A stretch of DNA of 61,106 nt from a virus (IMGVR_UViG_3300037483_001204:1-61106); one strand, 5' to 3'; positions 8,561 to 20,935 are shown, numbered from the stretch's first letter. The notes: generated by a model from the sequence alone, not told the origin. Made by a program: numbers and translations.

Positions 8561-8969
8561 GGTACACCTCCCGGAGGAACTCCTCCCGAAACGACTCCCC
8601 GCTCGGGCGCCGGGACCAGACCCTCCCGGGGCTCGCTTGGACGAGAACCCAGGCGGGGACCCGCCCGAGGTACTCCGCCGCCCAGAGCGCCGGGAGCATG
8701 ATCCAGCTCCTCCCGAGCCGAAGGACGACCGCGAGCCGCCAGCCCCTCGCGTGCATCCCGACGAGCGTCGACCGCTGCTCGGGAGAGAAGTGGCGGACCC
8801 GGACGACCGTCTCCGCCCGCTTCGGAACCGCCGCCTCCTTAAGCTCGACCGCCCCCCGGGTACAGAAGACGTCCGGCGTCCCCTTCGAGAGGAGGTTCTC
8901 GATCGCGAGCGCCCCCCACTCCCTTAGCGCCGTCTGCGTAACCCACTGCCGCATCGTACTCTCGCTCAA
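8547..8969 (-). CDS. PD-(D/E)xK nuclease (VRR-NUC/resolvase-like)
   Basis: GTPDVFCTRGAVELK motif; TTG 8969 overlaps the polymerase stop. Confidence 0.75.
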   Translation of the reverse strand: MSESTMRQWVTQTALREWGALAIENLLSKGTPDVFCTRGAVELKEAAVPKRAETVVRVRHFSPEQRSTLVGMHARGWRLAVVLRLGRSWIMLPALWAAEYLGRVPAWVLVQASPGRVWSRRPSGESFREEFLREVYRGAS

Positions 8970-10978
8970 GCCACCCTCCTCCCCCGGCACCCCGGACAGA
9001 CCTTCTTCACGAGTTCTCGCCCGCACTCTAGGCAGATCCCCCTCACCGCCCCCCAACTCGTCGGGGAGACCTCGACGTCGACCTTCACCGGGACCTCTAG
9101 CTGGACGACGTCCCGCATGATCTCGCCCCAGCGCCTCGCCTCCCTCCAGTCCGCTACGCTCCCGACGTTCTCGTCGTGCTCGGTAAGCTGGACGAAGGCA
9201 CCCTCCGCGTCGAGCGCGACGAGGGAGGCCTTCGTCTGGTCCGCGGCGGAGCCCTGGACGACCCCGTTCGTCCCCTTATGGAGCCAGTCGTACGTCCCGT
9301 CCGCCTTCAGCGGGAAGTTGATCCGCCGCCCGAGGATCGTCCGGACGTAGCCCCGGGCCTTAATCACGTCCTGGATCCGCCACGAGAGGGGACGGACCCA
9401 CGGGACCCGGGCGTGAAACTGGTCGATGATCGCCTGCCCCTCGTCTCCGGCCCCGAGGTACTCGTGGCCGCTCTTCGTCCGGCGCATCTTCGTCGGGAGG
9501 TCCATATAGTGGACGCAGAGCTTCGCCCCGCCCATCCCGTAGACCGAGCCAAGGAAGACGTCCTTCGCGCGCCGCCGCTCTAGACCCGTAACCCGCGCCA
9601 TGAAGGAGTGGAAGTCGAGGTCGGGGTTCCGGTGGTACTCGTCCCGCGCCTCCCGCGCTCCGGGGAGGGGGCGCCCGCTCCGGTCCCGGGAGAGGTAGGC
9701 GTAGTGGACCGCGAGCCGGGGCTCCTGCTGGGAGTAGTCGGGGGCGGCCATGATCGACCCCTCCTCGGGGAGGTAGAGCGTCCGGAGCTTCTCCTTCAGC
9801 TCCGGGTAGCGGTCCCCGTACTGCTGCTGGAGGTTCACGTGCTCCATCGACGTCCGCCCGCTCCGGGCTCCCTTTAGCTTCCCGGTCTCCTCGTCCTCCC
9901 GCTTGAGCTGGTTGATCGTCGGGTGGAGCCGACCGTTCACGAGGTGGTCCCGGATCGACCGGACGAACGTCGTCCGCATCTTGTTCATCTGCCGGGCCCG
10001 GAGGAGCGCGCGGGGGACCGGCCCCGGGCTCCGCTCCAGTAGCCCCGAGGTTACGCTGGGCTTCCTCGTCTTCGGGGTGAGGCGCGGCGAGATCCCGACC
10101 GAGCGGAGGGCCGCCGCGCAGGCCTCCGCCTTCCAGGCGTCGTCGACCTCGAAGGGAACCGCCGCCCCGGCTCGGATCGTCGCCGCGGCCCTCCGCTCCT
10201 CCCCCAGGGCCCACTCCGCGACTCGGTCGAGGCCGTCTAAGTCGACCCGGACTCCCCTCCTCGTCATCTTCACGAGGACCGGGAGGACCCGGCTCTCCAG
10301 GTCGTAGATCCCCCAGAGGTCCCCCTCCTCGATCCTCCGCTCCATTCTCCGGAGGAGGACGAGGGGGAGGCGGGCGTCCTGCTCCGCGTAGTCCCCGACG
10401 AGGTTCGCCGGCAGCATCCAGAGGTCCCTCCTCCGGTCGACCCCGAGGACCTCCGCCGCCCGGTCGAGCAGAGCGTACTCCTTCCCCGGGATCCCCTCCC
10501 GCCGCGCGACCGCGTCGAGGGCGTAGGAGGGATAGAGTTCGTAGAGAAGCGGCGCCGCGATCTGCGTGTCCCGGAACCACGCCGCGCGCCGATAGACGAC
10601 GCCGTTCTGGGCTAACCAGTCGAGGTCGTACGAGAGGTTGTGCCCGACGATCGTCCCCTCGAACGTCGCCGCCTGCTCGCGGAGGTAGGCCCAGGTCCTC
10701 TCGGGGTCGAGGTTCCCGCCGCCCTCGTGCGCGACCGGGAGGTAGGCCGAGGGTCCGTCCTCGATCGCGAACGAGACCCCGACGACGTACGACCCCGCCC
10801 GCCGCACCCCGGGGCCGAGGTTACGACTCCCCCGTCGATCCCCGAGGTCGGGGTCTCGCGTCTCGACGTCGACTGCGACCCGGCTCGCGTCTCTCCAAGA
10901 CGGAAGCTCGGCGAGGCTCGGGGCGGTCCAGTCCGACTCGATCGGAAACGGGATCGGGCGCTGCGTCGGGGGGGACAT
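8966..10978 (-). CDS. polA: family A DNA polymerase with 3'-5' exonuclease
   Basis: Exo motifs DVET, HNLSYD, YAEQD; polymerase motif A DYSQQEPR, motif B RAKDVFLGSVYG, motif C HDE. Confidence 0.95.
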   Translation of the reverse strand: MSPPTQRPIPFPIESDWTAPSLAELPSWRDASRVAVDVETRDPDLGDRRGSRNLGPGVRRAGSYVVGVSFAIEDGPSAYLPVAHEGGGNLDPERTWAYLREQAATFEGTIVGHNLSYDLDWLAQNGVVYRRAAWFRDTQIAAPLLYELYPSYALDAVARREGIPGKEYALLDRAAEVLGVDRRRDLWMLPANLVGDYAEQDARLPLVLLRRMERRIEEGDLWGIYDLESRVLPVLVKMTRRGVRVDLDGLDRVAEWALGEERRAAATIRAGAAVPFEVDDAWKAEACAAALRSVGISPRLTPKTRKPSVTSGLLERSPGPVPRALLRARQMNKMRTTFVRSIRDHLVNGRLHPTINQLKREDEETGKLKGARSGRTSMEHVNLQQQYGDRYPELKEKLRTLYLPEEGSIMAAPDYSQQEPRLAVHYAYLSRDRSGRPLPGAREARDEYHRNPDLDFHSFMARVTGLERRRAKDVFLGSVYGMGGAKLCVHYMDLPTKMRRTKSGHEYLGAGDEGQAIIDQFHARVPWVRPLSWRIQDVIKARGYVRTILGRRINFPLKADGTYDWLHKGTNGVVQGSAADQTKASLVALDAEGAFVQLTEHDENVGSVADWREARRWGEIMRDVVQLEVPVKVDVEVSPTSWGAVRGICLECGRELVKKVCPGCRGRRVA

Positions 10979-11854: not shown

Positions 11855-12426
11855 CGGACGACCTCGTCGAGGAAGGACGGCCGCCGGTTCTCCCACTCGT
11901 CCCAGAACTTCCGGACGGGCTCCGGGATCTCGTCCCCCCGGCTCTCCAGCCACCCCTCCAGCCGCTCTATCACGGGGTCGACGTGGTCGTTCCCGAGCCG
12001 CTTCTGCTCGCAGCACCAGAGCCATAGTTCGAGCTTATCGAGGGCGTAGAGCCAGTAGACCTCCTCCTCCGAGAGATCGGAGAGGATCCGACCGATCCCG
12101 AGCCCGTGACGAACGGCCGACTCGATCTTCCCCAGCTCCTCGTCGAACCGACTCCCCGGGAGCCAGGACACCGTAACCGGGACGTCCCCGGTGAACGCCT
12201 CGTGGACGTCGTGGTAGTGGACCGCCCGGACGAGCCTCGCCGGAGGCTCGGAGGGCCACAGCGCGTAGAGGAGCGTCAGCACCCCGTGGGTATGGGCCGC
12301 GACGGAGTACGACCCGACGTGTCGGATCGCGTGGCACCGTTCGACGGCGCCCCCCGCGCGGAGGTCGGTTACTCGCTGGACGAGGTCGCTCACGACGACG
12401 CCGTCCGGTCTCTTCGCTGCTCCCAT
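11851..12426 (-). CDS. HD-domain 5'-deoxynucleotidase (YfbR-like)
   Basis: R..H....YSVAAH...HDVHEAFTGDVP...DKLE; real start ATG 12426 with AGGAG RBS. Confidence 0.85.
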   Translation of the reverse strand: MGAAKRPDGVVVSDLVQRVTDLRAGGAVERCHAIRHVGSYSVAAHTHGVLTLLYALWPSEPPARLVRAVHYHDVHEAFTGDVPVTVSWLPGSRFDEELGKIESAVRHGLGIGRILSDLSEEEVYWLYALDKLELWLWCCEQKRLGNDHVDPVIERLEGWLESRGDEIPEPVRKFWDEWENRRPSFLDEVVR

Positions 12427-13499
12427 CGACTCCTCCTTCGGTCTAGCCAGTCTCTCCCCGCCACGCGCCAGTCGTCCGCGTGGCACCTCTCGATCTCTTC
12501 GAGCGCCCCGTCGTAGTCCCGGAGCCGGTGCGCCCGGTGCGCCCGGATCATCGGGAGCGCGACGTGGACGAGGAAGGGCGAGGCGAGCGCCGCGGAGACT
12601 CCCCCGGAGTCCCGTCGCGCGTTCTCTCCGCTCCACTCGACCCACCTTAGGAACTGCCGAAGTTGAGCGTCCCACTCGTCCGGGTCCTCCCCCGTCTCGA
12701 TCAGCGGGGGGCTCGGCCGGAGACCGCTCGCGTACGGGTCCGCGATCGGTCGGTGGTCGAGGACGGCCCGCGCCTCGTCCGCGAGGGGTTCGAGGGGCTG
12801 GATGGTCGCGAGGTAGCCGTGCCAGTTGTTCGAGAACTGGACGAGGCGACCGACCGGGCACCCGACCCGCGCCGCTAGGTACTCCTGGAGGAGGGAGAAG
12901 TGGACCGCGTTCGCCCCGTACGCCCCCCAGACGACGTCGTTCGAGCGACACGAGACCGTGAGGTCGAGCCGCCCGTCGTCGTCCCGGGAGAAGTAGGCGT
13001 GGGTGTTACACGGGACGTCGAGGCTCCCCGAGCCGAGGTCGCGCTCCGGGTCCCACATCGCGACGACGCACCGTCGGTCGTCCGGGTTACTCCGGAGACG
13101 CTCCGCGATGTGGGGGAGCTGATCCGAGTACCCCGGGCCCGCGTAAGACGGGTCGCGCCACGGGAATCCCCGCCAGCGCCTCCCGTAGGCCCCGTGGAAG
13201 TGGACGCCGTCGTCGGAGAACGTCTCCATCCGCTTCACAAAATCGCGGACGAAGGCGACGTCGTCCCTTCCCGCGAGCATCCAGAGCGCCTCGAAGAGGT
13301 GGAAGAAGGGGTTAGCGTCCCGCTCCCGCCAGAAGAGGACCCGCTCGCGGGGGCGCTCGTACTCGGTCACGACGGGGCCCGGGGCGACGAGGACCGGGCC
13401 GTTCCGCGAGCCCCGGGCCCGCCCGTGCTCGAAGAGGTAGTCGAGGGCGACCGGAAGAGCGCAGTGTACGTTCCGGGCCCGGATAACGTGGACGCTCAC
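12390..13499 (-). CDS. thymidylate synthase-family enzyme, likely dUMP hydroxymethylase
   Basis: Catalytic PCN, RSND, GAN (Asn implies dUMP specificity), NNWHGY; lies in a cluster with 5-hmdU modification genes; GTG 13499. Confidence 0.85.
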   Translation of the reverse strand: MSVHVIRARNVHCALPVALDYLFEHGRARGSRNGPVLVAPGPVVTEYERPRERVLFWRERDANPFFHLFEALWMLAGRDDVAFVRDFVKRMETFSDDGVHFHGAYGRRWRGFPWRDPSYAGPGYSDQLPHIAERLRSNPDDRRCVVAMWDPERDLGSGSLDVPCNTHAYFSRDDDGRLDLTVSCRSNDVVWGAYGANAVHFSLLQEYLAARVGCPVGRLVQFSNNWHGYLATIQPLEPLADEARAVLDHRPIADPYASGLRPSPPLIETGEDPDEWDAQLRQFLRWVEWSGENARRDSGGVSAALASPFLVHVALPMIRAHRAHRLRDYDGALEEIERCHADDWRVAGRDWLDRRRSRWEQRRDRTASS

Positions 13500-13672
13500 C
13501 GCTTCCTCCACTCGTCGAACGCCCGAACGACCTCGGACTCTAGTACGATCTCGTTGGTCACCGCGACTCCGTTCTCCGTCGTCAGCACGAAGCAGCCCGG
13601 GTACGGGTAGGGACTCTCCTCGACGTAGACCCCGTCCCCGAGGTAGGTCTTCTCCCTCGCTCCTTCCTTCAA
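13496..13672 (-). CDS. small conserved phage protein (YLGDGVYV...)
   Basis: TTG 13672 overlaps the UDG-like gene stop. Confidence 0.55.
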   Translation of the reverse strand: MKEGAREKTYLGDGVYVEESPYPYPGCFVLTTENGVAVTNEIVLESEVVRAFDEWRKR

Positions 13673-13697
13673 GTCGTGGCTCCTTCCTTCAAGTCGT
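13659..13697. repeat. 19-nt tandem duplication GCTCCTTCCTTCAAGTCGT
   Basis: Copies at 13659-13677 and 13679-13697. Confidence 0.9.
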
Positions 13698-14184
13698 TGA
13701 AGAGGTCCCGTACCGCGGCTCGGTTCGGCTCCTCGTTCCACCATCGGTTCCGTCCGGACGGGTGCGGGACGACGATCGCCCGCCAGCTACCGTCCGCCGT
13801 GAGGACCTCCCCCCACTCTAGGAACCCCACCGGCCTCCGCCAGGCGAACGACCGCTGGACGTTCCGGCCGAGGAGGACGAGGCCCGAGTGCCGGTCCCGC
13901 TGGAGTGCCCCGAGGATCGAGAGCGCCCCGAGGCGGGCCCGTCGGAGCGGGAACCCCCCGCCGGGCGGGATCGGCTCCCGGACGACGTTCGTCCGGTCGA
14001 GTCGACGGAGGTACTCCCTCGGGGTCCAGCCCGCTAACCGGCAGAGCCTCCCCCCGCTCCTACAGTCCCCCATCGGGTTCAGCCAGACCCTCGGCCGATC
14101 GGCGCAGTCCGGCGTCGGGGCCTCCCCCACGAGGAGGTAGACCGGCCCCCGGCCCGGGGCCCGGAACGTGATCGCCCCGCGCAC
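13669..14184 (-). CDS. uracil-DNA glycosylase superfamily protein
   Basis: Motif A LLVGEAP, central N, VLLG, motif B PHPSGRNRWWN. Confidence 0.75.
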   Translation of the reverse strand: MRGAITFRAPGRGPVYLLVGEAPTPDCADRPRVWLNPMGDCRSGGRLCRLAGWTPREYLRRLDRTNVVREPIPPGGGFPLRRARLGALSILGALQRDRHSGLVLLGRNVQRSFAWRRPVGFLEWGEVLTADGSWRAIVVPHPSGRNRWWNEEPNRAAVRDLFNDLKEGATT

Positions 14185-14471: not shown

Positions 14472-14654
14472 CTAGCCCGCCTTTCCCTCTCGGATTTGGC
14501 CTAGCATCAACTTTAGGTCGGGGTGCCCGAGAACGACCCGACCCCCGACCCTCGCCTCGTAGCTAATCGAGACGAGCGCGGTGATCTGGTACGTTCGGCC
14601 GTCCGGTCCCCGGAACTCCATCACCGGGACTCTCGCCTCGTCGCCCCCGCTCAT
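14472..14654 (-). CDS. hypothetical protein
   Basis: 60-aa ORF, ATGA-coupled. Confidence 0.5.
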   Translation of the reverse strand: MSGGDEARVPVMEFRGPDGRTYQITALVSISYEARVGGRVVLGHPDLKLMLGQIREGKAG

Positions 14655-15529
14655 CCCCGGAACAGCGCCCGCGGGCGCCCCTCGCCGAGCCGGACCCGCT
14701 CGTACTTATCGAACTCGCACAGCGAGTGCTCTACGTCCCGCATCTCTAGTCTCGGCCACGCCCCCGGCCACCCCTCGTCGAGCCCCCCGAGGATCTCGCG
14801 CATCATCCCGGCCGCGTCCGCTGGGCGAAGGGGATGGGAGAGACGCTGCCCGAGGAGTCGGTTCAACCCCCGGAGGGCCCCCGGACCCGCGTTGGCCCAG
14901 GAGAGGACGTCGGGGGCGCCCCGGAGGTAGCGCGTCCAGCGGAGGTCGGTCACGACCTCGTACGCCATGAACGGCCCCCACCCGACGTACCTCGGCTCCT
15001 GGAAGAGGTCCCAGACCTGGTGGAGGGAGAGCCCGATAGAGAGGGACAGACCCCAGAAGGTCCGATCCTCCCAGAGCCTCCCGAGGATGATCTCCGCGAT
15101 GTACCGGTGCTTCGACCACGAGTACCACTCCTTCGAGCGGTCGCTCTCCGCCCGGATCACGTAGGCTCCGGTGTAGACCTTCTCGCCGCGCGCCGCGCGG
15201 GCCGCGAGGACCTCCGTGAACCGCTTCGCGCTCCAAAAGTCCTTCTCCGGCCAGGCCCCTCTCGTCTCAATCAACTCCGCGAGGGTCTCCGGCCAGTTCA
15301 CGTAGCGGGCGATCGCGAGCATGAACCAGAGGTGCTCGGAGTTCGCGAACGGCTCCCGGACGTTCTCTCGGATCCAGACCGTCACCCGGTCCAGCTCCCG
15401 GTAGACGTTCGTGAAGCGATAGGTCCGGAGGATCTCGTCCTCCGTCCAGGGCCCCGGCTCCCCCGCCGCGCGGGCGAGGTAGATCCGGTGGCGCTCGGTC
15501 ATGAACGCGAGGAGGCGGGAGAGGTCCAC
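14651..15529 (-). CDS. 5-hmdU DNA kinase helical domain (aGPT-Pplase1 family)
   Basis: ERHRIY...GEPGPWTEDEILRTYRFTNVYRELDRVT, YTGAY, GWGPFMAYEVVTDL, GPGALRGL, EHSLCEFDKY. Confidence 0.85.
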   Translation of the reverse strand: MDLSRLLAFMTERHRIYLARAAGEPGPWTEDEILRTYRFTNVYRELDRVTVWIRENVREPFANSEHLWFMLAIARYVNWPETLAELIETRGAWPEKDFWSAKRFTEVLAARAARGEKVYTGAYVIRAESDRSKEWYSWSKHRYIAEIILGRLWEDRTFWGLSLSIGLSLHQVWDLFQEPRYVGWGPFMAYEVVTDLRWTRYLRGAPDVLSWANAGPGALRGLNRLLGQRLSHPLRPADAAGMMREILGGLDEGWPGAWPRLEMRDVEHSLCEFDKYERVRLGEGRPRALFRG

Positions 15530-16108
15530 TTACTCCGCCCTCTCCGCCGGCAGCCGGAGGAGTTCCCGGACCCGCTCGTAGGTCTCCTCCCGGCCGAGCT
15601 TCTCCGTCGCGACCTTCGCCGCGCGGAGCTTCGCGACCGCCGTCCGCGTCGTCTTCAGCTTCGCCCGGACGTTCTCGACGTTGACGGGCTTCTTCGGGGG
15701 CCGCTTCGACCGCCGCCTCCGGTCCTCGATCCCCGCGAGGCACGTCGCGAGGTCGACGTCCATCTCGATCACCCGAAGGTCCCCCCGCCTCGCGAGCCGA
15801 AGCGTCCGCGTCGTCTCGTAGTAGAGGAGGGTTACACCCTCGAAGAGGACGTCGAAGCCCTCCGCGTCGAGCCACTCGACGAGCCCGAAGAGCTTGTCGA
15901 GCTTCGGGATCGTGTCGCACCCCCCGCACTCGGTCTCGTAGTGGCCGACGACCGCGAACCGGGTCTCGTCCCTCCGCTCGCAGAGGTAGTAGAGGGGTCG
16001 CTTCCGACCCTCGACGTGGACCGGGCAGGTGTCCTCCGCGAGGGCCATGACCCTCCGGACGACGGTGCTCTTCCCGGCGCCGAAGGCCCCTCGGACATTA
16101 ATCATCAC
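15530..16108 (-). CDS. P-loop kinase (5-hmdU kinase-associated family)
   Basis: INVRGAFGAGKST Walker A, GHYETECGGCDTI, VLFEG; GTG 16108 with AGGAGG RBS. Confidence 0.8.
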   Translation of the reverse strand: MMINVRGAFGAGKSTVVRRVMALAEDTCPVHVEGRKRPLYYLCERRDETRFAVVGHYETECGGCDTIPKLDKLFGLVEWLDAEGFDVLFEGVTLLYYETTRTLRLARRGDLRVIEMDVDLATCLAGIEDRRRRSKRPPKKPVNVENVRAKLKTTRTAVAKLRAAKVATEKLGREETYERVRELLRLPAERAE

Positions 16109-17469
16109 TCGTTCGTCCTCCTCTCGTTCCCGTAGCGTTTTGCGAAACCCCTCGACGCACCCACCAACTGCTCGACGATCTCCCGCCACTCTCTTGAAGC
16201 CTCCCGCTTACTACCTGGATCGAGAATCCGATCCTGCGGCTGCTCCCCGTAGGACGCGAGGAGACGAACCCGATCTCGCTCCGCCCCGAACTCCTCAACG
16301 AGCCGCTCACAATGCGTCGGATTCATCGCAAGGATGACGTCCGCAGCCCGAACAAGATCCTTCGTCAACCCCGTCGGCCGCCGCTTCGAGATCTCGGAGC
16401 CGTACCTCCCGATGCTCCTCCGCATCTTCGCTCCGACATGCCGCAGTGGTCGAAACCCCCCGGACCGGACATCGAGATCCGGCCGGAACTGCGCGATTAC
16501 CGCCGAGGCCGCTGGACTCCGATAGGCGTTCCCAAGACAAACGACGAGAACGACGGGCCGACGCGGCGGAACCTCCCCAATCCTCTCCCAGATCCCCCGC
16601 CGCGCCTTCTCGACACCGACATGGTGGCGAGACGTCGCCCGGTAGGTCATCTCCATTCCATGATCGTAGGGACAGAACCGGGGGAACGAGGCGTCAAGGA
16701 ACTCGGGCTGCCCCGAGAGGTCCTCGACGGTCTCTCCTGTCATGAGTGCCGCGCGAAGGTACGCTCGCGCCCAACGAGCCGCGGCGATAACTTCCTTGGG
16801 GTCGAGCGTCCCAGGAAAGTGTCGGAACTCGATCGTGTCGGTCTGAAGAAGCTGCCGGAGATTAACGGCAGACCGAGGCCGCGCATGCCAAAGAGTCTTC
16901 CCCGCCCGCGACCGCGGAACCTCCGCAGCGAAGAACTCCTCGACCGTCGTCGCGGCGAGCTGAGCCTCGGAGTATCGGGGGAGTGGGAGCTGATGATGAG
17001 AGACCTGCCTCCGGCGGAACCTCGTCACCGCCCCGCGGTAGTCCTCGTCCCGGACGTAGCTGTCCCGAAGAGGCTCCGGAATCGGATCGACGAAGTCAAG
17101 CGCCGAGGGAAGCTGCCGGACGTTGTAGGAGAGAAGCCGCTTCAGCGCGTCGAGATCCTCCCGAAGGCCAGGGACCCGAACGTGGACATGGAGGTTCGAG
17201 CGGTAGTTGACGCTGGCCTTCGGCTGAAGGAGAAGGAACTCCCGGAGAAGCCCCCCTTGGGCCTCGGGAGTCGAGGTCGGAGGCGTCCGAACCTCGCCGC
17301 CGTAAGGGTAGATCTGCCCAGGGGGGTCGACGGCAATCCCGTTCGAGTTGACGACCGTCCAGTCCCCACCCCAGTCGAACCCTTCCGGGACGCCGTTCCG
17401 CGTGTCCCAATCGGCGAACTCGTGCTCGACCCCGTAGGTCCAGCTGGCCTCGTTCAGGTTCGCGGTCAC
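16105..17469 (-). CDS. fusion: COOH-NH2 amidoligase plus LMW protein-tyrosine-phosphatase/ArsC-fold domain
   Basis: N-terminal TYGVEHE, GGEVRTPP, LHVHV, AVN, TIEFRHFPGTLD; C-terminal VVCLGNAYRSPAA (CX5R), ADVILAM, ILDP; GTG 17469 overlaps the rSAM stop and has a GGAGG RBS. Confidence 0.8.
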   Translation of the reverse strand: MTANLNEASWTYGVEHEFADWDTRNGVPEGFDWGGDWTVVNSNGIAVDPPGQIYPYGGEVRTPPTSTPEAQGGLLREFLLLQPKASVNYRSNLHVHVRVPGLREDLDALKRLLSYNVRQLPSALDFVDPIPEPLRDSYVRDEDYRGAVTRFRRRQVSHHQLPLPRYSEAQLAATTVEEFFAAEVPRSRAGKTLWHARPRSAVNLRQLLQTDTIEFRHFPGTLDPKEVIAAARWARAYLRAALMTGETVEDLSGQPEFLDASFPRFCPYDHGMEMTYRATSRHHVGVEKARRGIWERIGEVPPRRPVVLVVCLGNAYRSPAASAVIAQFRPDLDVRSGGFRPLRHVGAKMRRSIGRYGSEISKRRPTGLTKDLVRAADVILAMNPTHCERLVEEFGAERDRVRLLASYGEQPQDRILDPGSKREASREWREIVEQLVGASRGFAKRYGNERRTNE

Positions 17470-18842
17470 TTCTTCGCCTCCCACTCCCGAAGATCCTTGA
17501 CGGGGAAGACGTTGTAGTCCGCGGGGCGGAGCGCCGGGGCCCGGCCGAGCCGGACGTCCCCGCACGGGACCTCGTCCTCCCCCCGCTCGTCCCCGCACGT
17601 AAGGCAGCCGCTCGGGGGACAGACCTCCAGCGGTCGGAACGGCTCGTCGGCCGAGTCCCGGACGTGCATCGGGACTCGGTGGCCGTGGCACTGGTCCGCG
17701 GTGAGGTAGCGCGCGCCCATCGACACGCCCGTCTTCGAGACGACGTTCCCCTCCGCGTCGCGCTCGTACTCGTACTCGTAGCACAGCCCCATCGTGACCC
17801 CCGCCCTCTTCGTCTCGACGAGGAACCGGTCGAGCGCGGCCCTCCGGTACTCCTCCGCGATCGTCCGGACCCCCCCGATGTTCTGGACGAAGAGTCCCTC
17901 GAAGAGGTACGCCCGATCGCTCCCGAACCGCCTCCGCATCTGGCGGATCATCCCGGCTGCGCTCGGGTAGACGATCTCGACGAACTTGAAGATCAGGTGG
18001 TCCGCGCCCGCCTCCGCGAGGAGGTGGATTAGCTCGACGACCTCGTCGTTCGACGTAATTCCCGCGACGATCGGGTTTACCTGAATCGAGACGTAGATCC
18101 CCCGCCTCTGCATCTCCCGGATCTGCTCGAACATCTCGTCGAGCGGGACCGCCCTCGGGGAGAGCCGCTGCCAGTCCTCCGCGCTGGGCGTATTGATCGA
18201 GAACTGCTGGTAAGAGAAGGGGTTACGAGCGAGGAGATCGTAGGCCCAGCCCGGGACCCGTCGCCGAGTGAGGAAGTAGATCGGAAGCCCGACCTCGGTC
18301 GCGGCCTCCGCGGTCGCCCGCGTGTTCCCGTAGACGTCCTCCAGTTCGAGGAACGGGTCGATGAACGAGGACATATAGACCGCCGCCCCGAGCCGCATCC
18401 GCCGGAGCTGGCGCCGGACCTTCTCCCCGTACCGCGGGTCGACGGTCGCGAGGCCCTGGCCCCGGTAGCCCCGGACCCCGTTGTTGATGTAGCAGAAGCC
18501 GCACCCTACCGCGCAGAAGCCCCCGTACGGCTGGGTCAGGATCGAGTCCGTGTAGCACGGCCTCGGCCTCCGGTTAGGAGCCTCGTGCTTCGGCTTGTAC
18601 CACCCTCGGAGCGGGATCGACTGGTCGACGAGGACGTGCGGGATCGGATCGAGCCAGACCTTCATCTCCCTCGTGTTCTCGTCCGTCGCCCCCCGGACCA
18701 TCGCCACGTCCCGGTACGTGTAGCGGAGCCCCGTCTCCTCGTCGACGACCGGTTCGATCTTGTTCAGATGGGGCTCGTTCTCCATATGAAACCCGAACGG
18801 GTCGATGTCCTCGACGCTCGGTACCATCGGTCCCTCGGTCAT
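17466..18842 (-). CDS. radical SAM enzyme (candidate glycinyl-thymidine isomerase)
   Basis: CAVGCGFC (CxxxCxxC) plus C-terminal Cys cluster CPPSGCLTC; position matches M6-type clusters. Confidence 0.85.
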   Translation of the reverse strand: MTEGPMVPSVEDIDPFGFHMENEPHLNKIEPVVDEETGLRYTYRDVAMVRGATDENTREMKVWLDPIPHVLVDQSIPLRGWYKPKHEAPNRRPRPCYTDSILTQPYGGFCAVGCGFCYINNGVRGYRGQGLATVDPRYGEKVRRQLRRMRLGAAVYMSSFIDPFLELEDVYGNTRATAEAATEVGLPIYFLTRRRVPGWAYDLLARNPFSYQQFSINTPSAEDWQRLSPRAVPLDEMFEQIREMQRRGIYVSIQVNPIVAGITSNDEVVELIHLLAEAGADHLIFKFVEIVYPSAAGMIRQMRRRFGSDRAYLFEGLFVQNIGGVRTIAEEYRRAALDRFLVETKRAGVTMGLCYEYEYERDAEGNVVSKTGVSMGARYLTADQCHGHRVPMHVRDSADEPFRPLEVCPPSGCLTCGDERGEDEVPCGDVRLGRAPALRPADYNVFPVKDLREWEAKK

Positions 18843-18875: not shown

Positions 18876-19733
18876 CTAGTCTCCGATGTTCCAGAACACG
18901 AGGGGCTTCATGAGGCTCTCCCGGGAGGCGGTCCGGGAGAGCCACCGCCACGCCTTCGCGTCGTAATAGGGGTTGCAGGGGAACGGGACCTCGACGTCGA
19001 CCGCGTCCGAGTAGCCGTAGCCCTCGTCGACGAGGAGGATCTGGCCGGGGTCGAGGTCGGCCTCGCTCGACCGGAGAACGTACTCCCGCGCCGCCTCGAT
19101 CGAGCGAGAGTAGCCGAGGTGGAGTACGACGTCCCACGGCCCTCTCCGAAAGACCCCCGACGTCGAGAGCCCCCGGAGGACCCCGGCCGCGACCGTCCCC
19201 GAGGAGATCGAGACGACGAGCGTCCCCGAGTCCGGGAGGAACGGGGCCGTCCGGCTCGCCTCCGCCGCGTTCTCGGTCACGCTCTCCGGGATCTTCAGCG
19301 CGTTCGGCATCAAGTACGAGTCCGGGTAGGTCGAGACGAGGTGCTTCCGGGCCGCGTGGAAGAGGATCGCCGAGCGCCCCGCCCGAAGCGAGTGCGTCGC
19401 CGATCCGAGGGCCGCCGCGCGGATCTGCGGCTCCCGGACGAGGCCCTCCGGCGGGTCGCTCTTGTACCGAGGCCAGTACGTGACGCACCGCTTCCCGAGC
19501 GCCCGACAGGCCCGAGCGACCGCCCACCCGGCCTTCGAGTGGCGCGTGTCGAGGACCCCGATCGTCCCCTCCGGGCGAGCCGCGACGTGCGCGACCACCC
19601 CCCGCATCTTCGAGAACGGGGGCCCCGACGGACAGCAGAGGTCCTCGCGCTTCACGAGGACGACGTCCTCGCCGAGAGGGTGCATTTCGACGGGCGTCCC
19701 CTCGACGACCAGGCTAGAAGTTGAACGGCTCAA
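18876..19733 (-). CDS. PLP-dependent fold-type II enzyme (candidate DNA-amino acid decarboxylase)
   Basis: TPVE...VLVKREDL...SKMRG, SISSGT, YYDAKAW, LVFWNIG. Confidence 0.8.
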
Positions 19734-20085
19734 TCTCGTCCTCCTCGACGATGAAGCGCCCGGTAGTCGGGCACCGCTTGTCGTAGCTCCGACCCTTCGA
19801 GTGGCGGTCGGCCGCGTTCTCCGCGAGCGTCCCCGGCATAAGGTGCCACGGGTTCACGCAGAGCCGGTTATCGCAGGAGTGGAGAACCTCCCGCCCGTCG
19901 ACGTCGACTCCCCCGAGGATCAGTACCGCCCGGTGGGCCTTCTCCGCGTGCCCTTCGAGCCAAAACTTCCCGTACCCGTACCGGTCGACTCCCCCCGTCC
20001 ACTCCCAGCACTCCGCGGGGCGCCGCTCCTCCGAGACCTTCTCCCAGAAGCGGATCCAGTCGCCCCGCCGCCTACTCCGGGGCAC
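19714..20085 (-). CDS. HNH homing endonuclease
   Basis: CWEWTG..DRYGYG...AHR...[21 protein letters not shown]...KGR. Confidence 0.9.
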
Positions 20086-20935
20086 TCCGGAGCGCCCCTA
20101 GGAACTCCTGCGCTGCGATGGACGACCCCGCCCACGGCTCTATCTTCTCCCGGATCTCCCGGAGGTCCGCGTAGAGCGGGTAGTGGCCGGACCGGTGGCT
20201 CTTCCACTTACAGAGGACCGTCTCGATCTCCTGGACCCCGCACGGTCGGCCCGGGATCCCCGGGGCCTCGTACCCTCCGACGACGGGCTCTAGCGCCCGG
20301 ACGACCATAGCGAGGGTCGTCGCCGACGACTCCGTCCTCGTCCAGCTCCACGAGTCCGCGACCTCGATCGCCCCCCTCGCCGGGGAGTCGAAGAAGGCGA
20401 GGTGGGGCGCTGCGAACTCGACCGAGACCCCGACGACCCGCTCTAGCATATCGGCGACCTTGAACGCGATCCACGCCCCGAACCCGTAGTGGCTTCGGAC
20501 GGCCCGGACGACTGCGTCGTAGGACGGAGCCGCCTCCGCGATCCGGTAGACCATCGCCTCCGGCTCCGCTCCGTACCGCTCCCGGAGCCCCTCGATCGCG
20601 ACCGTCGCGATCCGCGCGCGGAAGTGCCGGCGCTCCCGCCCCCTGGGCCACCGGGCGAGGCCCGCGACGGGGGGCTCCGTTCGATTCTCCGCGGCCTCCC
20701 GTAGGATAGCCCAGAAGTCCTCCCCCCCTCTAGCACTCGCGAGACTCGCGAACCCGCAGTCGTAGAAGCCCCAGTAGGCGACGAGCCAGCGGGCGATCTG
20801 CGACGTCCCCCAGCTCGGCTCCTCGTCCCCCCGCAGCCGGACGAGCGCGTCGTAGATCGGGTCGAGGTCGCCTGCCTCGATCGTCCGCCGAGCGAACTCC
20901 TCGACCGGGAGCCTCGGGTAGTCGCGCCCGCTCAC
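20072..20935 (-). CDS. amino acid:DNA transferase (aGPT-Pplase2 family)
   Basis: [58 protein letters not shown]. Confidence 0.85.

Follow-up and report, generated by a model that had tools for sequence, protein, structure and literature searches.

The virus sequence IMGVR_UViG_3300037483_001204 (61,106 bp; "the window" hereafter means this whole stretch) carries a 454-aa open reading frame (ORF) in which an amidoligase-like domain is joined to a low-molecular-weight (LMW) protein tyrosine phosphatase (PTP) domain. We found that this fusion is a rare form of a widespread, uncharacterized two-gene module of ligase and phosphatase. The module is an accessory tailoring cassette of phage base-hypermodification clusters, and it occurs with two chemistries, one producing thymidine derivatives from 5-hydroxymethyldeoxyuridine (5-hmdU) and the other 7-deazaguanine. 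Judging from the company it keeps, we consider the chances evenly balanced that the ligase N-acylates a primary amine borne on the base, here that of 5-aminoethyl-dU (5-NedU). The window phage probably makes an undescribed DNA base, an amide-capped 5-aminoethyl-dU derivative.

The source record, an IMG/VR virus of 69% G+C, has a CheckV completeness of 96%, and the genes called in it lie on the minus strand. The frame at 16105-17469 on that strand is open and translates into 454 aa. Its GTG start at 17469 shares the letters GTGA with the TGA of the upstream radical-SAM (S-adenosylmethionine) gene and has GGGAGG 7 nt to its 5' side; its stop (16105-16107) overlaps the start of the kinase gene, which is either GTG (16108) or ATG (16105). 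The mechanical ORF extends to 17784, but that extra stretch overlaps the radical-SAM gene, and the database gene call (P0002, 459 aa) starts at 17484. No ATG, GTG or TTG lies in frame just ahead of the phosphatase P-loop, so the C-terminal domain can be produced solely when fused to the ligase. Contigs from four of four public runs span the junction (about 16540-16600) in frame and show 0 differences and 0 gaps; one of these runs may represent the source sample. No RNA run is listed among public runs as carrying the sequence. The ORF genuinely joins two proteins in one frame. Its G+C content at third codon positions is 0.72-0.79, against 0.87-0.97 in neighboring genes other than g217 (0.78). 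The difference agrees with a later insertion and suggests a recent acquisition from a lower-GC phage.

The C-terminal domain (C-domain, aa 307-442) matches the Pfam family LMWPc (PF01451) with E=3.7e-16 and 63.3 bits, over profile positions 1-143 of 144. Its sequence matches in the Protein Data Bank (PDB) are YwlE and Wzb at about 1e-8, and Foldseek returns Wzb and YwlE at about 1e-6, with ArsC structures ranking lower. In the separate phosphatases encoded beside ligase genes elsewhere (the partner proteins) the P-loop reads CHGN[IV]NRS. No variation was seen at its Cys, Arg and Ser across 52 aligned partners; the second Cys of the loop is replaced by Tyr in the window and mostly by Asn in the partners, and the Asp-Pro general-acid motif is kept in 55 of 56 distinct partner sequences. 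By its sequence the C-domain is a member of a phage-specific subfamily of LMW-PTP-fold cysteine phosphatases, with predicted activity. A word-index search found no stand-alone relatives of the C-domain, and tblastn of the window's C-domain against GenBank phages found none, although more typical partner queries did find phage Simon.

Two specializations known within this fold were considered. In ArsC of the LMW-PTP fold, two more Cys residues form a redox relay after the loop Cys. The sole other Cys of the window domain is C387, which is Cys in 1 of the 56 partner sequences, and no other Cys is conserved; an ArsC-type relay reducing the phosphomethyl base is ruled out because the 56 partner sequences have no second conserved Cys. 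In arginine phosphatases of the YwlE type, a Thr after the G-N of the loop is the determinant of phosphoarginine (pArg) recognition. This Thr was not found, the residue being Ala in the window and mostly Ile or Val in the partner family.

The N-terminal domain (N-domain, aa 1-295) matches Amidoligase_2 (PF12224) at E=3.3e-5 with 24.3 bits (cut-off 22), over aa 185-236; in its relatives P0006 and P0100 the match covers about 170 residues. In an ESM Atlas feature search, all 30 matches were PF12224 clusters, mostly viral. The AlphaFold2 (AF2) model of the full-length protein was poor in the C-domain (predicted local distance difference test, pLDDT, about 35-88), and Foldseek returned only the phosphatase from it, so the N-domain was modeled separately. 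That model, built from 111 sequences, reached a pLDDT of 97.4, and every PDB structure listed for it by Foldseek is a glutamine synthetase (GS), the glutamate-cysteine-ligase part of GshF, or YbdK. Fifteen residues of the domain are invariant in 120 aligned proteins, which shows that it is not a chance ORF; in the 111-sequence set 19 columns are invariant. The invariants include G13, E15, E17, N41, G57, E59, R90, H96, R150, S157, H158, R199, T212, E214, F215, R216, H217 and T279. We read the N-domain as a predicted active, minimal and divergent member of the GS-like carboxylate-amine ligase superfamily. The family is almost phage-restricted: 185,579 species genomes gave 5 matches, all on contigs of metagenome-assembled genomes (MAGs) that carry a modification cluster. 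Complex prediction from the alignments of the two domains scored 0.00 in two runs without controls and is counted neither way.

A first-pass annotation, made from the sequence alone, had described a 454-aa ORF overlapping genes at both ends and had pointed to the motifs GVEHE (aa 13-17), GGEVRTPP (57-64), LHVHV (93-97) and TIEFR (212-216) together with the phosphatase loop. Translation, Pfam and the bridging of the junction in four of four runs bear out this description, and Pfam, together with structure prediction and Foldseek for both domains, bears out its assignment of an amidoligase and an LMW phosphatase. It had also named no characterized enzyme with this fusion. The fusion is indeed rare, with three such proteins seen, but it is not a one-off, since the same two domains form a widespread two-gene module.

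A word-index search returned 343 ligase homologues, nearly all of them stand-alone N-domains of about 300 aa near 50% identity. The ligase-LMWPc fusions seen were the window protein, P0003 (436 aa) and P0006 (447 aa). An alignment shows their junction sequences to be unrelated and non-conserved, and a quick tree leaves the three in an unresolved polytomy, compatible with one fusion event or with several. Starting from the other domain, the C-domain has 842 matches at E<=1e-3 in a 1.84-billion-protein representative library; judging by length and position of the match, the top 150 of these include just two ligase fusions, the window's own protein and P0003.

To place the gene pair in its genomic setting we used a census of ligase loci. 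A scan of IMG/VR gave 117 loci with a ligase relative, of which 80 were kept, and phage Simon and Vibrio phage 2.275.O brought the total to 82. With BLASTP on ORFs, an LMWPc-like ORF lies next to the ligase in 69 of the 82 loci, always as a separate ORF; none of the 82 is fused. The partner is downstream on the same strand in 66 of these 69 cases, and all 69 have the loop C-x-G-x-x-x-R-S/T. A tblastn census detected the phosphatase in 46 of 82 loci; we use the higher count because every ORF in it has the loop motif. For 52 of the 69 unfused pairs the P-loop Cys codon is <=42 nt from the end of the ligase ORF, so that the stop and start of the pair abut or overlap. A separate scan seeded with the phosphatase gave 58 loci, 11 of them on new contigs by contig name, and in 10 of those 11 the ligase is adjacent. 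Among GenBank phages, short fragment records aside, Simon (PQ683277, oxidase-type) alone holds both genes; the 20 oxidase-type and 70 radical-SAM-type GenBank records, Simon excepted, were without ligase and phosphatase.

The loci are strongly associated with DNA modification. A base-modification marker is present in 78 of the 82, and this search of architectures and neighborhoods found that the fusion is not common outside modification clusters. A flavin oxidase, a pyridoxal phosphate (PLP) enzyme, a QueF-like enzyme or a class-II amidotransferase is present in 73; the oxidase lies upstream of the ligase in 18 of 21 loci, as do the PLP enzyme in 5 of 6, in three of them at a distance of no more than about 30 nt, and the amidotransferase in all 43. 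Twenty-nine loci and the window make up type a. Its gene order runs from an amino-acid:DNA transferase (ADDT) through a flavin (DAO-type) oxidoreductase, or PLP and radical-SAM enzymes, to the ligase, the phosphatase and a P-loop kinase, followed by a helical-domain protein, a thymidylate-synthase-like gene and a Family A polymerase. Among these 30 the kinase is found in 30, the transferase in 25, the thymidylate-synthase-like gene in 24, the helical domain in 23 and the oxidase in 20.

The other 53 loci have no type-a marker by BLAST and are mostly of type b; the QueF-type loci and an AT-rich clade are also among them. Type b has the order TET/JBP dioxygenase, class-II glutamine amidotransferase, in some cases a 366-aa protein, ligase, phosphatase, ADDT and AAA_33 kinase, and corresponds to the TET-type group in the passages of Lee et al. 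(PMC8989533) that describe it. Within the 53, the counts are 37 for TET/JBP, 42 for the amidotransferase, 18 for the 366-aa protein, 50 for the phosphatase, 41 for ADDT and 40 for the AAA_33 kinase. Type c, marked by a neighboring QueF-like nitrile reductase gene, has three members, namely L018, L025 and Vibrio phage 2.275.O. L018 has the order QueF-like gene, 99-aa ORF, ligase, phosphatase, QueE-like radical-SAM gene, and in Vibrio phage 2.275.O the ligase adjoins QueF and QueC. The genomes from which L018 and L025 come are complete, have terminal repeats and encode QueC. A search of five records for TGT (PF01702) gave no match and is uninformative. With these three QueF loci, the module is not confined to 5-hmdU chemistry.

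The window operon itself is a thymidine-hypermodification cluster, in agreement with the DNA-modification operon first annotated, and it can be read against that of phage M6. Passages of Lee et al. (PMC8989533) on M6 assign gp51 as glycine:DNA transferase, gp52 as PLP decarboxylase, gp53 as radical-SAM glycinyl-thymine isomerase and gp54 as 5-hmdU DNA kinase. The window block is collinear with the M6 5-NedU pathway in gp51-gp55 order at 42-58% identity (Table 1). Its kinase ORF had no tblastn match to M6 and was assigned by position and ORF cluster; it clusters with the kinase ORF of 30 of 30 type-a loci, and the cluster representative passes PF18748. The gp53-gp54 interval is empty in M6, whereas the window has the ligase-phosphatase fusion at exactly this point. 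The fusion gene is the window's one extra enzyme, and the M6 pathway ends at the free amine; by this comparison the window phage probably goes one step beyond it.

The remainder of the operon would build 5-(2-aminoethyl)-dU as in M6. The dUMP hydroxymethylase would lead to 5-hmdU in DNA, on which the kinase, glycine transfer, radical-SAM isomerization and PLP decarboxylation would act in turn. A free carboxylate would then be converted by the ligase, at the expense of ATP, into an acyl-phosphate, and the acyl group would be coupled to the exposed primary amine to give an amide-capped base. Because a primary major-groove alkylamine is common to all of the pathway ends, we favor ATP-dependent N-acylation. 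Ligases of the GS superfamily mostly activate the gamma-carboxylate of glutamate, and glutamate is our default guess for the acyl group because of this habit only; no result points to any donor.

Synteny with phage PaMx11 points the same way. Its gene order is gp46 transferase, gp47 flavin lyase, gp48 N-acetyltransferase and gp49 kinase, and in the relevant passages of PMC8989533 gp48 acetylates the amine exposed by gp47. In oxidase-type loci (for example, L084) the ligase-phosphatase pair occupies the gp48 slot, and none of the 82 loci has a gp48 homologue. The product of QueF chemistry likewise bears an aminomethyl group, and N-formyl and N-methyl dPreQ1 are known, according to passages of PMC10516641. 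Synteny and co-occurrence thus lend support to the first annotation's suggestion that the ligase may acylate the amine left by the PLP decarboxylase. A broader possibility, which we regard as doubtful, is that the cassette is a portable writer of amide-capped aminoalkyl bases (5-aminomethyl-dU, 5-aminoethyl-dU and 7-aminomethyl-7-deazaguanine) with a phosphorylated or unusual acyl donor that is unmasked by the phosphatase.

The role of the phosphatase is the weakest part of our account. It may remove the phosphate of the acyl donor after ligation, or hydrolyze an acyl-phosphate, which the first annotation had offered as its alternative. From the gene associations we tentatively tie it to the ligase step, with somewhat less than an even chance of being right, and consider it unlikely to be an eraser of 5-phosphomethyl-dU (5-PmdU). 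The ligase is adjacent in 57 of the 58 phosphatase-seeded loci, as judged from contig names; because the phosphatase tracks the ligase and not the kinase, clean-up of 5-PmdU is less likely than a role at the ligase step. Of the combined tailoring and proofreading enzyme first proposed, the tailoring half is therefore strengthened by synteny, and the proofreading half is weakened. Related fusions exist in cellular proteins. Of ten longer proteins matched in the C-domain search, four (P0145, P0240, P0241 and P0260) join LMWPc to ATPgrasp_Ter; the fusion partner is Sua5 (threonylcarbamoyl-AMP synthase) in P0138, with a strong match, and in P0208, with a weak one. That the phosphatase fold seems to be paired repeatedly with ATP-dependent enzymes that activate carboxylates is a hint that the phosphatase may serve ligase chemistry.

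Several results weigh against this account. The Amidoligase_2 match in the window spans just 52 residues, the Foldseek scores for GS, GshF and YbdK are marginal (E 9e-4 to 2e-2, template-modeling score 0.29-0.41), and searching PDB sequences with an N-domain family profile yielded matches at chance level only. The census started from ligase homologues, and some of its contigs are near-duplicates (its 89 rows comprise 73 distinct ligase sequences). In 13 of its 82 loci there is no phosphatase, at least three of these (L026, L039 and L061) being cut within about 800 nt of the ligase, and the phosphatase-less minority includes a clade of PLP/radical-SAM-type loci that is well supported in the quick tree. 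The ligase thus has no strict need of the phosphatase, which is therefore accessory or specific to particular donors. An alkyl-phosphate acyl donor would be a poor substrate for the LMW-PTP class. One locus, L098, has a phosphatase without a ligase next to two P-loop kinases, which fits a phospho-DNA target. Finally, both chemistries include base-borne carboxylates, glycinyl-thymine in one and 7-carboxy-7-deazaguanine in the other; a QueE-like gene follows the L018 pair, and the class-II amidotransferase of the TET-type clusters fits amidation of such a carboxylate well.

These last points are the case for a different reaction, in which the ligase would amidate the carboxylate on the base (N-alpha- or C-alpha-glycinyl-thymine, or 7-carboxy-7-deazaguanine) with ammonia or with a small, perhaps phosphorylated amine that is trimmed by the phosphatase. 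Amidation stays a rival because passages of PMC8989533 and, for 7-carboxy-7-deazaguanine (dCDG), of PMC10516641 place carboxylate intermediates in both chemistries. In all 43 TET-type cases, moreover, an ammonia source in the form of the amidotransferase lies upstream of the ligase, and the phosphatase would have a function if the amine partner were phosphorylated. We nevertheless think it improbable. The window and the oxidase- and PLP-type clusters retain enzymes that remove the carboxylate, so that the ligase would compete with its own pathway, and the QueF-type genomes keep QueC and QueF, which take the pathway past the carboxylate. In synteny of the PaMx11 type the module takes the place of an enzyme that acetylates an amine, and no amidotransferase is present among the scanned neighbors in the window.

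It is quite unlikely, in our estimate, that the ligase tailors the base while the phosphatase returns unprocessed 5-PmdU in DNA to 5-hmdU. Such a role would agree with the invariable position of the phosphatase gene between the ligase and kinase or transferase genes, with the arrangement in L098, and with the place of 5-PmdU as a common intermediate of these pathways in passages of PMC8989533. Phages that have kinase and transferase but lack the ligase also lack the phosphatase, though (the 70 M6-like and 20 PaMx11-like records), and the phosphatase keeps to the ligase in the phosphatase-seeded loci. A kinase and an eraser in one operon would run a futile cycle unless separated by time or site. 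In addition, the pair occurs in the two complete QueC/QueF genomes, L018 and L025, which gave no match to ADDT, HMUDK_hel or either kinase type in Pfam or single-protein searches of limited reach, PF18748 having matched nowhere, controls included. A target other than DNA has very little going for it overall: either a small amide metabolite, such as an unusual nucleophile for the transferase, or host or phage proteins acted on by a protein-directed ligase and a phosphotyrosine or pArg phosphatase. GS-like amidoligases do include metabolite and peptide-tag ligases, and the best PDB relatives of the C-domain, YwlE and Wzb, are protein phosphatases. Transferases of the ADDT family use free amino acids or amines, as passages of PMC8989533 report. 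The window transferase, isomerase and decarboxylase are, however, 42-58% identical to the glycine-specific M6 set, so no new nucleophile is needed, and the Thr of arginine phosphatases is missing both in the window and in the partner family. The module is rarely found outside base-modification clusters, which account for 78 of 82 loci and all 5 MAG contigs, and in four proteins (P0064, P0072, P0084 and P0100) the ligase is fused to a DNA-kinase-like domain. N-acylation of the base-borne amine remains the reading that we favor for the ligase.

Table 1. Features of the fusion gene and of the surrounding operon in the window
Feature	Coordinates	Strand	Basis
Family A DNA polymerase closing the collinear block	8966..10978	-	PF00476; 53% identity to M6
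Thymidylate-synthase-like protein, putative dUMP hydroxymethylase	12390..13511	-	PF00303; 47% to M6 gp58 region
Uracil-DNA glycosylase (UDG)-superfamily protein near Family A polymerase	13669-14184	-	Weak Pfam match; M6 homologue elsewhere in its cluster
5-hmdU DNA kinase helical-domain protein (M6 gp55 slot)	14651..15529	-	PF18723, E=4.2e-54; 58% to M6
P-loop kinase, putative 5-hmdU DNA kinase (M6 gp54 slot)	15530..16108	-	Weak PF18748 match; position; ORF cluster
Fusion ORF, amidoligase-like domain + LMW phosphatase domain, 454 aa	16105..17469	-	Translation, Pfam, read-contig bridging
C-domain, aa 307-442, predicted LMW-PTP-fold cysteine phosphatase	16144..16551	-	Pfam PF01451, PDB sequence search, Foldseek
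Asp417-Pro418 general-acid motif	16216..16221	-	Translation; partner alignment
P-loop CLGNAYRS, aa 311-318 (Cys311 nucleophile, Arg317, Ser318)	16516..16539	-	Translation; partner alignment
Short linker (…GEVPPRRP…) in place of the stop/start overlap of unfused pairs	16552..16584	-	3-protein alignment; unfused-pair spacing
N-domain, aa 1-295, predicted glutamine-synthetase-like carboxylate-amine ligase, Amidoligase_2-like	16585..17469	-	Pfam, AF2, Foldseek, Atlas
Radical-SAM enzyme, homologue of M6 gp53 (glycinyl-thymine isomerase)	17466..18842	-	Pfam; 46% to M6
PLP enzyme, homologue of M6 gp52 (decarboxylase)	18876..19733	-	Pfam PALP; 58% to M6
HNH endonuclease between transferase and PLP genes, overlapping both	19714..20085	-	Pfam HNH_3 / zf-His_Me_endon, weak
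Amino-acid:DNA transferase (ADDT / aGPT-Pplase2), homologue of M6 gp51	20072..20935	-	PF18724, E=1.6e-16; 42% to M6

Other features of these genomes deserve mention. The HNH / His-Me gene within the window's modification operon probably encodes a homing endonuclease; M6 has no HNH counterpart at the transferase-PLP position. As to the UDG-superfamily protein near the polymerase, UDG-linked polymerases of T-modified phages are the subject of a 2026 NAR paper. Database labels can obscure the pathway: PaMx11 gp49 and M6 gp54 (L121, L122), which are shown 5-hmdU DNA kinases, carry the RefSeq label "terminase small subunit", and the radical-SAM isomerase is labeled "DNA repair photolyase". The four proteins that join the same ligase domain to a C-terminal P-loop domain resembling a 5-hmdU kinase form one clade in the quick tree (SH-aLRT 98).

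Among the TET-type clusters, the conserved protein of about 366 aa has no Pfam match and lies directly upstream of the ligase, with a median gap of 8 nt, in 18 loci (L108:3972-5066, L060:2649-3746), and a 138-aa protein (L046:2328-2741) recurs in 25 loci. A richer cluster at L028:6785-13747, seen also in L029, encodes TET/JBP, an R2K-type ATP-grasp protein, a class-II amidotransferase, the ligase without a phosphatase, ADDT and a GT4 glycosyltransferase, which suggests still more elaborate bases. The AT-rich clade (L066, L077, L078 and L079) consists of contigs of 79-169 kb (37% G+C in L078) in which the pair has the genes for DNA polymerase III alpha and a dCMP-deaminase-like protein as neighbors. 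In the two source records checked, those of L077 and L078, a kinase helical-domain gene is found about 45 kb from the pair, and the record behind L077 also has a weak ADDT-like match about 3 kb from the ligase. At the locus with a lone phosphatase (L098:3733-8596), a hypermodification-like cluster, the LMW phosphatase is accompanied by a kinase helical domain, a GIY-YIG-like gene, a methyltransferase and two P-loop kinases, and the 8.6 kb of sequence covered contains no ligase.

Thymidine and 7-deazaguanine hypermodifications shield phage DNA from restriction and other nucleases, and they are a source of enzymes that derivatize DNA. To our knowledge, the amines at which known pathways stop are free or carry an acetyl, formyl or methyl group. 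The placement of a conserved ligase and phosphatase behind the amine-forming step of several types of pathway leads us to predict further DNA chemistry, namely larger amide-linked groups. A phage-restricted amidoligase family thereby gains a context and a testable role, and a phosphatase is brought into the hypermodification pathways. If the cassette were the portable writer described above, the window phage and hundreds of uncultured ones would carry an undescribed class of DNA bases, and LMW phosphatases would have a recurrent, unrecognized partnership with ligases that form acyl-phosphates (GS-like here; ATP-grasp and Sua5 in cells).

Part of the module has probably been seen before, in the one paper that our literature search found to mention amidoligase genes in these clusters. 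Passages of Lee et al. (PMC8989533) record "amidoligase" Pfam matches in metagenomic thymidine-hypermodification contigs as co-associated genes, with no function assigned, and these probably belong to the same gene family as the N-domain. The same passages give no phosphatase partner, fusion, deazaguanine context or reaction, although the supplements may list them. In our literature search no paper was found to describe a phosphatase gene in such clusters, with the same proviso that supplements may list such genes. The main text of PMC10516641 contains no "ligase", and "phosphatase" appears in it solely as a reagent. In the sections covered, a 2026 PNAS paper on phage T-dioxygenases names amidotransferases, P-loop kinases and transferases as neighbors and no ligase or phosphatase, a 2026 paper on diaminopropane-thymine has no ligase or phosphatase terms, and a note on a Rhodococcus phage has neither "amidoligase" nor "phosphatase".

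Compared with characterized enzymes, the two domains are recognizable relatives in unfamiliar settings. The N-domain resembles GS, glutamate-cysteine ligase and YbdK (GCS2) at the level of the fold, and Glu, His and Arg residues are conserved among its homologues; it differs from GS and YbdK in being much smaller (about 295 aa), in having no sequence-detectable relative in the PDB, and in a substrate that is presumably DNA-borne. The C-domain shares the full-length PF01451 match, the C-X5-R-S loop and the Asp-Pro acid with YwlE, an arginine phosphatase, and Wzb, a tyrosine phosphatase, whereas its second loop Cys is replaced and its gene is tied to a ligase within DNA-modification clusters. 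Among 7-deazaguanine phages, the aminomethyl group of a modified base in the DNA receives a methyl cap from DpdM and a formyl cap from DpdN, and the module too is found beside QueF-like genes, but the enzyme families are different. The nearest parallel in position and proposed function is PaMx11 gp48, a GNAT-family N-acetyltransferase of 5-aminomethyl-dU, which holds the same slot after an amine-forming flavin enzyme and before the kinase and carries out the type of reaction proposed for the ligase, N-acylation of a base-borne primary amine. The likeness is positional and functional only. The two are not homologous, and where gp48 draws on acetyl-CoA, the module is predicted to combine an ATP-dependent GS-like ligase with a phosphatase partner.

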